The notes below the pieces were generated by a model. That model saw nothing but the letters and a program-made list of their open reading frames with translations. It searched no databases and had not been told where the DNA came from. Shown one piece after another: positions 4,969-31,930 of a stretch of DNA of 44,198 nt (its first letter is position 1; every line of letters begins with the position of its first letter). The stretch lies in the sequence record OR756193.1; one strand, written 5' to 3'. The translations under genes were made by a program, and so were the position numbers. Source of the stretch: Escherichia phage vB_EcoS-EE09.

Positions 4969-4978
4969 ATTGGTTGCA
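4969..4978. promoter_or_regulatory. ATTGGTTGCA motif in the divergent region between tail fibre and lipoprotein genes
   Basis: Exact 10-mer shared with 20819, 20832, 44170, 44187 and, in reverse, 1893, 31484, 31515, 34812. Confidence 0.5.
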
Positions 4979-5032
4979 ATCCTGGTTGAGCGGTGTAATA
5001 CTAAGACTCAACCAAATATAGGAGATGATAAC

Positions 5033-5251
5033 ATGAAAACTTTAATTATGATTTGTGCGGTTCTTCTGTCTGGTTGTGCCGGTATGCCGTCTAAAATCTG
5101 CGACGCGACGTACCAGAATAGCGGCATGGATTACTCAGTCCCCGTGTTTGGGGTTGCAGACTTCTCCGGGCATAAAATGCTAAGGGCTGGCTATCCGTTT
5201 AGCTTCCAGTACGTGTCGGTCAACCACTTCAAAAGCACCACCTGCAGATAA
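5033..5251 (+). CDS. small secreted lipoprotein (72 aa); candidate Cor/Llp-like superinfection exclusion protein
   Basis: RBS AGGAG 8 nt upstream of ATG; signal peptide with lipobox (MKTLIMICAVLLSGC); opposite orientation to the surrounding tail genes, terminator hairpins on both sides. Confidence 0.65.
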   Translation: MKTLIMICAVLLSGCAGMPSKICDATYQNSGMDYSVPVFGVADFSGHKMLRAGYPFSFQYVSVNHFKSTTCR

Positions 5252-20177: not shown

Positions 20178-20716
20178 TTACTCGTCGCCCATCTTAGCGA
20201 TGATTTCACCGGCCTGTTTCGTTAAGTCAGTGATACCGAAGCTGTGGCCCATAGTGATTTTAGACTTCACATCCTCGACAACCTGCGTCGGTTTGCTCGG
20301 TGCACCACCGGCTGGCGTGCCTGCCAGGACGGATGCAAAATCGGCGTTATTACGGAACTCTTTTTCAAGCTCTTCCATAGTCAGCGCGGACGGTTTGCCA
20401 TCCTGCAGGACACGCACCTTCAAGCTGCCGTCTTCGCCGTCTTCCAGCGTCAGGCGGTCCATAACGTGGCGTTGCATGATCCCGGCATTCTTACCGAATA
20501 GCTTCGACGCCAGGTCTTTGGCAGCGCTTCGGCGCGGCGTTCTGCTTCTGCTTTCTTCTCGCTCACCAGCTTCGCGTTGTTGTCTTTCAGACCCTTGATC
20601 TCCGCCTGTACTTCTTCGGCGGTCATGAACGTTGATTTATACCCGTCACCATCGGCAACAAAAAGCGCCTTCATACCTTCCGGCAACGCGTCATATTCTG
20701 CTTTAGTAAGTTTCAT
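20178..20716 (-). CDS. putative scaffolding protein, split into two overlapping frames
   Basis: Strong RBS AGGGGGA before ATG at 20716 (MKLTKAEYD...); frame A reads through a coiled-coil-like stretch then degenerates and stops at 20450; the -1 frame is open from about 20540 and continues as ...AAKDLASKLFGKNAGIMQRH... to 20178; no slippery site seen. Confidence 0.45.
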
Positions 20717-20805
20717 GCTATCCCCCTGGGATTGTGGCAAAGCGGGCCACCCGCTTGACTTCACGCCTTAATATTATCAGCGATAAAAATAATCGCAAAA
20801 TTCGC

Positions 20806-20841
20806 TTGCAATCCGCGTATTGGTTGCATATATTGGTTGCA
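20806..20841 (+). promoter_or_regulatory. candidate sigma70-type promoter with tandem ATTGGTTGCA motifs
   Basis: -35-like TTGCAA, 17-nt spacer containing ATTGGTTGCA, -10-like TATATT, then a second ATTGGTTGCA; 17-nt identity ATTGGTTGCACACCAAC with the reverse-strand motif upstream of the gene starting at 31460. Confidence 0.45.
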
Positions 20842-21628
20842 CACCAACAACGAGGACACAAAAAAGAGACTGACTAAAGACATTAAAAATCAGATTCTGG
20901 CTAACATCCTGCGCGACCACGAAATAGCGACAGAAGCAAAATCAATAATGATGGACTCGCGCGACCTGGCGTACGCCATTACGCTGGACTGTATGCCAGA
21001 AGGCATTCGCACGTTCGCCGAGCTACTCGCGCGCATTGAAGCAATCGGCGATGACCCGTCGCAGATGTACGGCGTCTGTGTATACACCAACAAGGCGACG
21101 TATAGTTATAACACCGACCGCCCGAAAGGCATCGGCAGCGTTTACGACGCCACTTTCGAAATCAACGCAGGCGGAAACGTCCGTACCGTGTCATTGAGCG
21201 GAGACGGATACCGATTCCGAGTACATCGCGGATACTGGGAGTATAAATACATGAATAAACTGTCTCCCGATCTCGGCGATATTGTGCCAGGGTATGAGGA
21301 AATTTTGTTAGCGTCAGTGTGCGAAGTCGACGACGACGGGAAAGCACTGCCGATATATCTCCCACGCGGCCGTGTAGACTACCCGGCGGATCATGATTTC
21401 TGTAAGCGCCTTGACCGTAACGATAAGGCCCGCCGCGATTTGCGAGCTAAGTATGACGCGTTCAAACTAACTGTTACCGGTGTGCTGGATATGCACAATA
21501 CCGATAAGAAGCTGATCAAGGAGTGGCCTGAAGTGGAACAGTTCATTCCTTACCCGGACAAGCCGAAGTCCACGGCGGTGGCGCTGGACGTTAAGACGTT
21601 AAACGAGATTTGCGGTATTCCGCGCTAA
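20837..21628 (+). CDS. hypothetical protein (up to 263 aa) on the opposite strand inside the head module
   Basis: ORF track; start uncertain (track start is a TTG inside the promoter motif; first in-frame ATG near 20947); own promoter-like region upstream and terminator downstream; no motif recognised. Confidence 0.55.
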   Translation: MHTNNEDTKKRLTKDIKNQILANILRDHEIATEAKSIMMDSRDLAYAITLDCMPEGIRTFAELLARIEAIGDDPSQMYGVCVYTNKATYSYNTDRPKGIGSVYDATFEINAGGNVRTVSLSGDGYRFRVHRGYWEYKYMNKLSPDLGDIVPGYEEILLASVCEVDDDGKALPIYLPRGRVDYPADHDFCKRLDRNDKARRDLRAKYDAFKLTVTGVLDMHNTDKKLIKEWPEVEQFIPYPDKPKSTAVALDVKTLNEICGIPR

Positions 21629-21630
21629 CG

Positions 21631-21655
21631 AAAAGGGGGCCATCACGGCCCCCGA
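21631..21655. terminator. bidirectional terminator
   Basis: GGGGGCC-atcac-GGCCCCC hairpin with an A-run upstream and T-runs on both strands; overlaps the last codons of the o-spanin gene. Confidence 0.7.
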
Positions 21656-21873
21656 ATTATTTTCTGCAACTCCAGCACTTGCGCCCTTAGCTTAGCCCCG
21701 CATTCCATATTTTTAACATCAACCAGCAAATCTTCGTCTGGATCTGCCGAGGCATTCTCAAAGGTGCAAGGAGGTCTATAGACCGACTCGGTTAGCGGCG
21801 TCGATGGCACGTTGCTTGATCCGCACGCGCTCATCATCAAAACTGCAATCAGGACGGTTAGGACGCGTAACAT
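21643..21873 (-). CDS. o-spanin (Rz1-like outer membrane lipoprotein)
   Basis: RBS AAGAGG; signal peptide with lipobox-like MMSAC, Pro-rich mature part; overlaps the i-spanin gene in another frame. Confidence 0.65.
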   Translation of the reverse strand: MLRVLTVLIAVLMMSACGSSNVPSTPLTESVYRPPCTFENASADPDEDLLVDVKNMECGAKLRAQVLELQKIIRGP

Positions 21874-22084
21874 ATTTTACAACCTCTTTCGTGATGGTCC
21901 TGTATTCCACGTCGCGGGCCTGTTCTGCCTGCACGACCCCCTCGACAACCTTAGTTTGCTGCCGTTGGGCTTTCGCTTGCGCTTCTTGCGCCGCTCTCGC
22001 CTCAACGCCAGTGCGGTAGGAATCACCCTGCCAGAATCCAACCGCCAGACCTATTACCAACCCAATCGCTGCATACTTAATCAC
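21776..22084 (-). CDS. i-spanin (Rz-like inner membrane protein)
   Basis: N-terminal transmembrane segment (IKYAAIGLVIGLAVGFW) followed by a charged, Gln/Ala-rich periplasmic part; track start is TTG, GTG at 22084 with RBS AGGGGG preferred. Confidence 0.6.
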   Translation of the reverse strand: MIKYAAIGLVIGLAVGFWQGDSYRTGVEARAAQEAQAKAQRQQTKVVEGVVQAEQARDVEYRTITKEVVKYVTRPNRPDCSFDDERVRIKQRAIDAANRVGL

Positions 22085-23180
22085 GCCATAGCCCCCTGTT
22101 TTTAAGCTGCGCAATAGTCATTAGTTCGCCCGTATCGGTGAACATCTTCGGCACTTTCACGCCTCGCATAATCTGGTCTGCGCGCTGCACTCCATATAAT
22201 TCCTCCAGAATATGGCGCGGCTGGCGCTGCACCCAGGAGAAGAAATCAGTCTGCGCGTCGACCTGCTCACTCAGCAATCTGCCCGCTTCAGCCTTCAGGG
22301 CCGGACGCTTACCACTGGGCCAATCTTCCATGCCCTTAACTTTCCACGTCTCCGTAGAACGGCAGCAATAATGCAGCTTGCCCGGACCAGCGCCATATTG
22401 TGATCCCGCCACCACTTTCCCGCCGCGTTTTCCTTTGGTGTCGGGAGTGACGTCAACAGGATAAAACAAGCGATCGCGTAGCTGGCACATAGGGGAGGTA
22501 TGAGTGTCCAATGTAGCCAACCATTGGCGACCTTCGAGAATATCGTCATTAGCTTTTACCATTAATTCGCGGGCGGTCGCCGCATAGTGGTTGACCGCGG
22601 ACTTAACAACGCTTGAGATTGCCTGCGCACTACGACCGCCAAGCGCGCGCCTCACGTCCGCGATAATTTCCATCGTTGGCTTGCCCTGGATGAATCCGGC
22701 GCGCACCTGATTGCCGATCTGCGTCCTGGTCCACTCGGAAAGTGAATCCGGCCATTGCATCATCGTATTACCCTGGAACGGGTTTTTCATAGCCGTCGCT
22801 GCAATCTGCGCGCCGGTAACAACGCCAACTACTTCAACAGCGGGTACGGCGACCGCGGGCTGGATCGCTGCCGTTAGTGTGTCGGCGAGATAATCAGCCT
22901 CGGTGTCGGCGAACTCCTGAAGGCTCTCCGCCAGCACTTTAAACTCGGCGCGCAGTTCCGTTTTGACGGTCTTGTCGAGTTGCGTTAATAGTGTGGTAAG
23001 TGCCTTGTTGCTCATGGACTTTTTGCCATCAAGTAACTCGGTCAACTTACCCAGTAAAGCGGGCCGGAACTTCTCCCACATAGTCAGCACCCTTCGCGCC
23101 TGGTCATTGCTCAGGCGCTGGGTGAAGATGTGACGGCGAATCATTCGATCCGCCATATATTGATTAATTGTCTTCGCCAT
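22077..23180 (-). CDS. putative head morphogenesis protein (367 aa)
   Basis: Position immediately downstream of portal with overlapping start and stop; size. Confidence 0.55.
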   Translation of the reverse strand: MAKTINQYMADRMIRRHIFTQRLSNDQARRVLTMWEKFRPALLGKLTELLDGKKSMSNKALTTLLTQLDKTVKTELRAEFKVLAESLQEFADTEADYLADTLTAAIQPAVAVPAVEVVGVVTGAQIAATAMKNPFQGNTMMQWPDSLSEWTRTQIGNQVRAGFIQGKPTMEIIADVRRALGGRSAQAISSVVKSAVNHYAATARELMVKANDDILEGRQWLATLDTHTSPMCQLRDRLFYPVDVTPDTKGKRGGKVVAGSQYGAGPGKLHYCCRSTETWKVKGMEDWPSGKRPALKAEAGRLLSEQVDAQTDFFSWVQRQPRHILEELYGVQRADQIMRGVKVPKMFTDTGELMTIAQLKNRGLWRD

Positions 23181-31479: not shown

Positions 31480-31530
31480 GGTGTGCAACCAATCTAGCAG
31501 GGTGCCAGGCTGAATGCAACCAATATTAAT
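31480..31530 (-). promoter_or_regulatory. promoter-like region with two ATTGGTTGCA motifs (reverse strand)
   Basis: Two exact copies about 31 bp apart, 25-55 bp upstream of the start at 31460; the proximal copy extends to ATTGGTTGCACACCAAC, identical to the motif at 20832. Confidence 0.45.
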
Positions 31531-31669
31531 CATGCGTATGAAAAAGTTGATCGCTATCTGCTGTGGCTGCAAACTGCATTTTTCACTCAGCATAATACAA
31601 CCCGCATTGGTTGCCTAGTTCATCCGCGACCGCACTTCGCATCATGCTGCCGTGTATTTTGCAATCCCC

Positions 31670-31800
31670 GGATTTTATTCAGTCTCAGACGAGGGGGGCC
31701 GTTGACCCCCGTCTAGTCTGAAAGACTGGGGTGCTGTCCCGCTTTGTCCCGCCTAGTGTTTGTCCCGCTTTTTGTCCCGTTTGGTTTATGCAATAAAACT
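31670..31800. repeat. second copy of the hairpin plus GTCCCGC-array element
   Basis: TTATTCAGTCTCAGACGAGGGGGGCCGTTGACCCCCGTCTAGTCTGAAAGACTGG...GTCCCGCTTTGTCCCGCC...GTTTGGTTTATGCA matches the copy at about 15095-15285 apart from a roughly 50-bp internal deletion and a few substitutions. Confidence 0.7.
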
Positions 31801-31829
31801 GCATAACTATTCATCTCATCTACACTACA

Positions 31830-31930
31830 CGGCAACCAATACGACCAGATAAAAACACGCAAAATGGCAACCAATACGCGCACAAATTAATCGTCTAGCG
31901 ATATGGGAATTCCCATATCGGCAACCAATG
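31830..31930. repeat. three iteron-like GGCAACCAAT(A/G)CG repeats plus a 22-bp perfect palindrome
   Basis: Direct repeats cGGCAACCAATACGa, tGGCAACCAATACGc, cGGCAACCAATGCGc; palindrome CGATATGGGAATTCCCATATCG at about 31899-31920; AT-rich flank; directly 3' of the primase-helicase gene. Confidence 0.6.

Follow-up and report, generated by a model that had tools for sequence, protein, structure and literature searches.

The window analysed here is the whole stretch of 44,198 nucleotides (nt) from Escherichia phage vB_EcoS-EE09 (hereafter EE09; sequence record OR756193), and coordinates are window positions unless another genome is named. Within its head module lies a plus-strand open reading frame (ORF), 20837-21628, that encodes 263 amino acids (aa) counted from a TTG codon and is flanked by the minus-strand scaffold gene fragments (20178-20717) on one side and the minus-strand o-spanin and i-spanin genes (21643-22114) on the other, exactly as an earlier note made from the sequence had described. 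That note found no recognisable motif in the product, a statement that does not survive profile searching: the ORF contains a full-length Nmad5 domain, its residues 11-262 spanning positions 2-206 of the 206-position profile of Pfam family PF18757 (184.3 bits, cut-off 27; E 3.7e-54), and it also matches PHROG 1965 at E 1e-60. The region shares 94% nucleotide identity with Dhillonvirus GeorgBuechner, 154 phage records match it, and several GenBank records already label the orthologue Nmad5. The gene is almost certainly nmad5, encoding a single-domain member of the Nmad5 family (PF18757), and corresponds to the published EE09 coding sequence CDS32. It is already known, both through its named Pfam family and through an orthologue that has been studied genetically in the same phage genus.

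The signals predicted around the gene are those of an independent transcription unit. A sigma-70-like promoter, TTGCAA-17-TATATT, was located on the plus strand at 20806-20834 by consensus scan (-35 hexamer at 20806-20811, -10 hexamer at 20829-20834); it is the sole promoter-like site returned from 20400-22200, and it is kept in GeorgBuechner, BF9, UDS3lw, TheodorHerzl, and WF5505. The customary distance from the -10 hexamer puts the predicted nmad5 transcription start at about 20840-20842. The promoter-like region with tandem motifs, to which the earlier note had drawn attention, is borne out by a pattern scan, which placed two tandem exact plus-strand copies of ATTGGTTGCA here, one within the promoter spacer (20819-20828) and the other across the -10 hexamer and start site (20832-20841). 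Further downstream, all relatives share the plus-strand Shine-Dalgarno sequence GAGGA (20852-20856) of the ancestral start at 20864, even those with another gene upstream. The proposed bidirectional terminator is likewise present as a G+C-rich hairpin, GGGGGCC-loop-GGCCCCC (21635-21653), which scores as an intrinsic terminator on both strands with folding energies of about -17 kcal/mol (-17.3 and -17.1 kcal/mol, one per strand) and is retained across 11 relatives. Its predicted role on the plus strand is to end the nmad5 transcript, and on the minus strand it follows the o-spanin gene. With a sigma-70-type promoter, a GAGGA sequence, and a two-strand terminator of its own, nmad5 reads at the sequence level as a self-contained unit in the head module. 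An Rfam scan of 20400-22000 returned zero RNA families. The published CDS31, a 40-aa minus-strand ORF at 20761-20883, was rejected as a gene, as it overlaps the nmad5 promoter and has no support.

The start of the ORF had been described as ambiguous, with a TTG inside the motif (in fact its second copy) and a first in-frame ATG near 20947 (at 20948 by the present count), and this ambiguity arises because the ancestral ATG at 20864 reads AAG in EE09. As relatives define it, nmad5 runs on the plus strand from 20864 to 21628, comprising 254 codons and a stop. Its first codon is ATG in 11 of 11 relatives, namely GeorgBuechner, BF9, UDS3lw, SM_W22, SM_A2, SM_S22, and five IMG/VR genomes, all of which encode a 254-aa protein, compared with AAG in the window (20864-20866; T to A at 20865). 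The relatives' ATG sits 7 nt after the conserved GAGGA, nearly all close homologues are 254 aa long, and family members from unrelated phages also begin with M-(x)-R-L-T. In an exact 23-mer scan of IMG/VR, the AAG version had 0 matches and the ATG version 6. The TTG at 20837-20839 was rejected as a start codon: it lies only 3 nt past the -10 hexamer and hence upstream of the predicted transcription start, it has no Shine-Dalgarno sequence, and it falls outside the family N-terminus. The published CDS32, annotated as a "hypothetical protein" of 226 aa (20948-21628, plus strand; PMC10673088 Table S4), begins at the first in-frame ATG, which is without a good Shine-Dalgarno sequence, and a product made from there lacks residues 1-28, including the conserved N-terminal RLT helix. 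Both this annotation and the over-long one of SM_S22 can be corrected to the 254-codon nmad5.

In E. coli, initiation from AAG or CTG reaches just a small fraction of that from ATG, and a CTG lies near the lost start, at 20870. Given the AAG at 20864 and the weakness of initiation at such codons, full-length Nmad5 is probably scarce or absent in EE09. A stronger reading, which complements the overall explanation developed below rather than competing with it, holds EE09 to be a natural nmad5 knock-down in which the gene is effectively dead, and the evidence leaves this finely balanced, with the scale tipped slightly against it. The substitution itself, the poor credentials of both the TTG and the downstream ATG, and the helix that a product from 20948 would miss all speak for such a reading, as do the dispensability of the gene, its disruption elsewhere (by frameshift in the metagenomic Dhillonvirus L009, deletion in Teewinot, and replacement in TheodorHerzl), and the failure of mass spectrometry to detect CDS32. 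Conversely, the rest of the ORF is intact, and codons 2-29 show no nonsynonymous divergence (dN = 0, against a synonymous dS = 0.42), their protein sequence being identical to that of most relatives; since the 28 codons upstream of the ATG at 20948 are still intact, the start loss, if real, looks recent. Near-cognate initiation at the AAG or at CTG 20870 may yield some protein at a low level, a single-base error in the sequencing or consensus of this one genome could have produced the AAG, and the mass spectrometry had low sensitivity for non-structural proteins. As a probable natural low-expression or null allele, the EE09 copy would offer a comparator for work on fitness and on the Tmn defence discussed below. 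A separate lesion is seen in L009 (ENA contig k141_254959, 1490-1500), where a poly-A run in the N-terminal part of nmad5 has 8 A in place of 7; this +1 frameshift leads gene callers to a 225-aa product, and because the same protein is recorded on 6 contigs, it may be a real slippage allele.

The promoter motif links nmad5 to genes far outside the head module. With at most one mismatch allowed, ATTGGTTGCA occurs 16 times in the whole window against 3.0 +/- 1.8 expected, a number reached by 0 of 100 shuffles. At intergenic sites, it either provides a -35-like TTGCAx or covers the -10 hexamer and start site (TAnATTGGTTGCA), and these sites stand ahead of CDS1, CDS6, CDS9, CDS49, CDS54, and CDS65, the first genes of the non-structural (methylase, replication, small-gene, and lysis) operons. 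When the motif scan was set against the annotated genes, the terminase-to-tail block had no preceding copy, with the exception of two plus-strand inserts, CDS9 and nmad5. At 1893-1914, two copies are arranged as a perfect palindrome, TGCAACCAAT-AGG-TTGGTTGCA, of the kind usual for a dimeric operator. ATTGGTTGCA is therefore likely to be an operator or promoter-class mark, and its distribution suggests that nmad5 is co-regulated with the non-structural genes, perhaps via an operator-binding protein. Copies of ATTGGTTGCA or ATTGGTTGCC also cluster at 31484, 31515, 31606, 31831, 31866, and 31920, in a mostly non-coding stretch downstream of the helicase-primase gene; those at 31606-31929 make up an iteron-like group, and the 31484-31929 stretch as a whole resembles iterons or a regulatory hub and could be a replication origin.

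CDS9 also bears on the earlier description of a minus-strand structural block interrupted by nmad5 alone, which holds for the head module and fails for the tail module. There, CDS9 (5033-5251, plus strand), a second opposite-strand gene encoding 72 aa and annotated as a superinfection-exclusion protein, adjoins the tail-fibre gene on one side and the next tail genes on the other. Its promoter carries ATTGGTTGCA as well, with TTGCAA at 4974-4979, a 16-nt spacer, and TAATAC at 4996-5001 (region 4969-5251), while Pfam returned zero matches for its 72-aa product.

Genetic evidence on the orthologue comes from Yamashita et al. (2025, Commun Biol; PMC11846954), who worked with nmad5 in the Dhillonviruses SMS22 (CDS6) and SMA8 (CDS7). 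Mutants escaping Tmn, a membrane KAP NTPase defence, carried K216E in nmad5, and reversion of K216E restored Tmn sensitivity (PMC11846954). Deletion of nmad5 from SMS22 left the phage viable, conferred no Tmn escape, and did not change its sensitivity, and the gene could not be cloned, apparently owing to toxicity (PMC11846954). Since Tmn sensitivity is unaltered by deletion, wild-type Nmad5 cannot be regarded simply as an anti-defence factor or simply as a trigger. The anti-defence or host-takeover function entertained in the earlier note is therefore only partly supported, for the literature does link the orthologue to host toxicity and to the outcome of Tmn defence, but the deletion leaves Tmn sensitivity as it was. 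In the window, the wild-type lysine is retained, with the K216 codon reading AAG at 21509-21511 on the plus strand. Residue numbering requires care, as the public SM_S22 nmad5 (L006, 1258-2262) is annotated 80 codons too long, running into the scaffold gene in antisense and giving 334 aa in which K296 equals K216, and this accounts for the K296/K216 discrepancy in PMC11846954. The gp7 annotation of Teewinot (L106, 1145-2191) is over-extended too.

The position of nmad5 between the scaffold and head-morphogenesis genes could suggest a head-assembly or structural protein, and one Tmn-escape mutant did carry a scaffold-protein change in addition (PMC11846954). This possibility is largely refuted and now very improbable. 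The gene lies on the opposite strand behind a promoter of the non-structural class, deletion mutants are viable, reverting the other mutations of the SMS22 escape mutant had no effect (PMC11846954), and homologues were never found in structural modules in the other contexts examined. Moreover, CDS32 was not among the 24 phage proteins identified in EE09 lysates, where 16 of 17 annotated structural proteins were recovered, and it was also missing from the 4 phage proteins seen in EE09-infected cells (PMC10673088). The Nmad5 protein is presumably not part of the virion.

Turning to the protein itself, family alignments reveal L217, W221, and N247 as the sole invariant residues, with T213, P222, and L246, along with E223, conserved at 90% or more. 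The recurring motifs are an N-terminal M-x-R-L-T helix and two C-terminal elements, T-x-K-K-L-x-x-x-W-P-E and L-N-x-x-x-G-[LI]-P, and the window copy has the RLT codons and both C-terminal motifs, with the initiator ATG reading AAG. K216 falls inside the most conserved of these motifs, T213-x-K-K-L217-x-x-x-W221-P222-E. A conserved set of catalytic-type residues was not found in the alignments, and neither an enzyme-like nor a recognisable catalytic fold was found for the protein; the distant homologues for the structure model were drawn from an exhaustive representative search, to which a second, word-index protein search added few. A sequence-profile search of the PDB with Nmad5 returned nothing significant, and PADLOC and NCBIfam searches gave zero matches.

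These results weigh on the interpretation implied by the Pfam name and assumed in PMC11846954, according to which Nmad5 serves DNA base modification, either as the enzyme itself or as a cofactor that the enzyme requires, and Tmn senses the modification. In its favour, the thymidine-hypermodification cluster of Yuavirus SN1/M6 and Bordetella phage CN2 has the gene flanked by aGPT-Pplase1 on one side and the thymidylate synthase/hydroxymethylase on the other, and Dhillonviruses do methylate their DNA with Dam-like and Dcm-like methyltransferases. The window, however, has no hydroxymethylase, 5-hydroxymethyldeoxyuridine (5-hmdU) kinase, or aGPT-Pplase genes, and most Nmad5 contexts (lambdoid phages, Athena1, C130_2, and phages with the family-A DNA polymerase PolA) are without modification genes, the association being confined to the Yuavirus/Vojvodinavirus group. 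Furthermore, in vitro reconstitution of the M6 pathway for 5-aminoethyldeoxyuridine (5-NedU) used gp51-gp55 only, a set without the Nmad5 gene (PMC8989533); the M6 Nmad5 gene is placed as the next gene along by synteny with SN1. The absence of a conserved catalytic-type residue set and of an enzyme-like fold, together with the unchanged Tmn sensitivity after nmad5 deletion (PMC11846954), points the same way and leaves the modification reading improbable. The link to nucleotide-modification genes is a contextual trait that lies behind the family name and outside the Pfam model. The label "DNA modification enzyme" finds no support here, which bears on how the Tmn escape data are read.

The distribution of nmad5 among related phages was surveyed with tblastn. 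At a coverage of at least 80%, 145 phage records contain the gene, of which about 143 are Dhillonvirus-like with an identity of 80% or more. Some 145 of 154 related genomes thus have it at this position, and a 63%-identical lineage has it in the same opposite-strand layout. The median pairwise ratio of nonsynonymous to synonymous divergence (dN/dS) is 0.13 over 66 pairs, indicating purifying selection. Absence or replacement is rare: Teewinot retains an nmad5 remnant of about 190 nt, and TheodorHerzl carries a beta-clamp-like gene instead, behind an identical promoter and 5' untranslated region. Given that nearly all Dhillonviruses have it in one and the same position and that its dN/dS is 0.13, nmad5 is, on this comparative reading, a conserved and selected gene common to almost all of them rather than a sporadic insert.

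This outcome qualifies the moron arrangement that the earlier note saw in the locus. Consensus and energy predictions do equip the gene with a promoter and a terminator of its own within an operon under different regulation, and it is non-structural, dispensable, and situated in a hot spot for accessory genes; the comparison of synteny, in contrast, speaks against a sporadic insertion, since patchiness among close relatives is a property of the added upstream genes and not of nmad5. A classical moron, horizontally inserted and devoted to superinfection exclusion, anti-defence, or host takeover with no connection to replication, would explain the predicted signals within the late operon, the dispensability, the toxicity, and the point mutant that escapes Tmn (PMC11846954). 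It would also suit a cassette that takes other small genes, a lambdoid homologue in the accessory region between N and cIII, and a second plus-strand insert with the same motif and a superinfection-exclusion annotation. It is nonetheless unlikely in view of the fixed position in nearly all Dhillonviruses and the 63%-identical lineage, the purifying selection, the finding that wild-type Nmad5 gives no protection from Tmn and is not required for its triggering (PMC11846954), the lack of a PADLOC match, and the several lineages that embed Nmad5 in replication modules, at times overlapping the PolA start.

The cassette between promoter and terminator is variable even so, with 7 of the 11 relatives having an extra gene between the promoter and nmad5. 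The additional genes are of three kinds: type A encodes 135-172 aa, type B (PHROG 24635) encodes 109 aa, and the third encodes a beta-clamp-like protein of 172 aa. In WF5505, the clamp-like gene is placed after nmad5, and in Kagunavirus fFiEco02 it stands alone in the head module on the opposite strand; the Dhillonvirus slot holds a beta-clamp homologue before, after, or instead of nmad5. The clamp-like family is homologous to domain II and the C-terminus of DnaN (E 4.6e-8 against PDB beta clamps). PHROG 3007, to which it belongs, is labelled 'RusA-like Holliday junction resolvase', a name copied into many GenBank records; the label looks wrong, because the members align to the beta sliding clamp at E 4.6e-8. 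The type A gene product had zero Pfam or PHROG matches, and in the SM_W22 copy (L003, 2030-2255) 37 codons (111 bp) are duplicated in tandem and in frame, making it 172 aa long against 135 aa in L014. Shigella phage EP23 (L015, 3719-3800) retains a remnant of the type B 3' end (...GGIKFN*) after its clamp-like gene and before the conserved GGGGCGAAAGCCCC hairpin, a trace left by genes that replaced one another in the slot.

Outside the Dhillonviruses, Nmad5 genes repeatedly adjoin replication genes. In three uncultured lineages (L018, L021, and L112), the order is DUF2800 nuclease, an Enc34-type single-stranded-DNA-binding protein (SSB), an intervening gene, Nmad5, in some cases a clamp-like gene, and PolA, and in one of these lineages the Nmad5 stop overlaps the PolA start. 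The protein beside Nmad5 in L018 and L021 and the clamp-like product of the Dhillonvirus slot are members of one family (PHROG 3007, 947; BLASTP E 7.6e-9). Another context reads PolA, one gene, Nmad5, AAA ATPase, and, further along, primase; in Vibrio phage Athena1, the Nmad5 gene stands just before replication protein O, and in Yuavirus SN1/M6 and Vojvodinavirus CN2 it lies within a module for thymidine hypermodification and PolA. The replication module of EE09, in the order DUF2800, one gene, Enc34 SSB, a 56-aa product, and PolA, is that of L018/L021/L112 minus Nmad5. In HK542, the homologue follows directly after N in the PL operon, and at least 80 near-identical lambdoid loci are present in IMG/VR, while in C130_2 and Smarc2 it comes at the end of the early operon, before the holin gene.

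From these elements, an explanation can be assembled in which nmad5 would be expressed together with genes of the early or middle (replication-type) class, its transcription running convergently to that of the late genes, and Nmad5 would act as a non-enzymatic accessory at or near the phage replication machinery, where a family-A polymerase, an Enc34-type SSB, and beta-clamp-like factors may be its partners. The protein would work by protein-protein contacts through its invariant C-terminal motifs, and such contacts could account for host toxicity as well as for the gain-of-function character of K216E, a substitution that alters the response to Tmn when deletion does not. The EE09 copy would be weakly expressed or silent. 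Taken as a whole, with nmad5 as the gene, a transcription unit of its own, a replication-linked accessory as the product, and a copy that has lost its start, this explanation is modestly favoured. The link to the replisome, considered separately, is plausible and falls somewhat short of an even chance. More tentative, and on present evidence rather doubtful, is an extended version in which Nmad5 is misnamed and is a non-enzymatic replisome accessory of family-A-polymerase phages, functionally coupled to, or partly interchangeable with, a truncated beta-clamp homologue; Tmn would then read a replisome-linked state altered by K216E, and the gene would have moved to an opposite-strand head-module cassette in Dhillonviruses and Kagunaviruses. 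Slot sharing with a beta-clamp homologue and repeated PolA/SSB adjacency nonetheless provide a testable hypothesis for a widespread phage family.

Several observations count against the replication-linked explanation. The family contexts are mixed, with Nmad5 found after N in lambdoid phages, before lysis genes in C130_2 and Smarc2, and among small unknown genes in Vibrio phage D456, and many phages have the clamp-like gene without a detectable Nmad5. Frequent recombination at the slot, and not a common function, could be why the two genes share it, and it also receives types A and B, which have no replication link. The connection of Nmad5 to replication is drawn from gene neighbourhood, and the non-detection of CDS32 in infected cells says little, because only 4 phage proteins were seen there. 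The possible consensus error at the AAG and low-level initiation at AAG or CTG 20870, raised above, weigh in the same direction where the lost start is concerned.

Comparison with known systems places the EE09 gene closest to nmad5 of SMS22/SMA8, an orthologue with 93% aa identity to the SM_S22 copy that shares its position, strand, promoter, and terminator, with the K216 motif kept. The two differ in the AAG that EE09 has for ATG and in the published description of the protein as a DNA-modification enzyme (PMC11846954), which is not supported here. The Nmad5 proteins of Yuavirus and Vojvodinavirus (M6, SN1, and CN2) have the same domain (SN1_019, E 3.4e-33) and the C-terminal TxKKLxxxWPE ... 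LNxxxG[LI]P motifs, and their genes are co-directional with and close to the family-A DNA polymerase; they differ in being about 186 aa long, lacking a Dhillonvirus insertion of about 50 residues, and lying in a base-modification cluster that the window does not have. Single-domain proteins of about 205-218 aa are found in L018/L021/L112, which share the DUF2800, Enc34 SSB, and PolA module of the window, and in the lambdoid gp33 of HK542 and the Shiga toxin (Stx) phages, but their genes are placed inside a replication or PL operon and not in an isolated opposite-strand cassette of the head module. The 172-aa beta-clamp-like protein of EP23, WF5505, TheodorHerzl, and Kagunavirus fFiEco02 occupies the nmad5 slot and is the neighbour of Nmad5 in L018/L021, yet it is not homologous to Nmad5 and is absent from the window. 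Lambdoid morons resemble nmad5 in their autonomous signals within a structural operon, their dispensability, and a neighbouring variable slot, whereas nmad5 is genus-wide, under purifying selection, and a member of a family typical of replication and early modules.

Some features of the surrounding minus-strand genes were also recorded. In the intergenic region between the scaffold gene and nmad5 (20718-20805), no minus-strand sigma-70 promoter for the scaffold gene exceeded the scan threshold, although a weak candidate, TTGCGA-16-TAATAT, with 8 of 12 matches, was seen by eye. The spanin-side minus-strand terminator (21635-21653) lies upstream of the scaffold, capsid, and tail genes, and a conserved hairpin, AAGCGGGTGGCCCGCTT, is present at 20741-20757 in the scaffold 5' leader. 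Read-through antisense to nmad5 and an activator-dependent promoter are both possible routes for late transcription into the capsid and tail genes.

The scaffold gene itself (20178-20717, minus strand) carries a 163-bp out-of-frame deletion and a 3-bp deletion relative to GeorgBuechner and is thereby split into an ORF of 88 aa (20450-20716) and one of 99 aa (20178-20477), which overlap. At the junction, 25 of the 25 matches listed, from the 154 phage records, align in two pieces, spanning 444 nt compared with 281 nt. Both scaffold fragments were seen by mass spectrometry, with coverages of 44% and 80% (PMC10673088), and a split scaffold protein in a viable phage is unusual.

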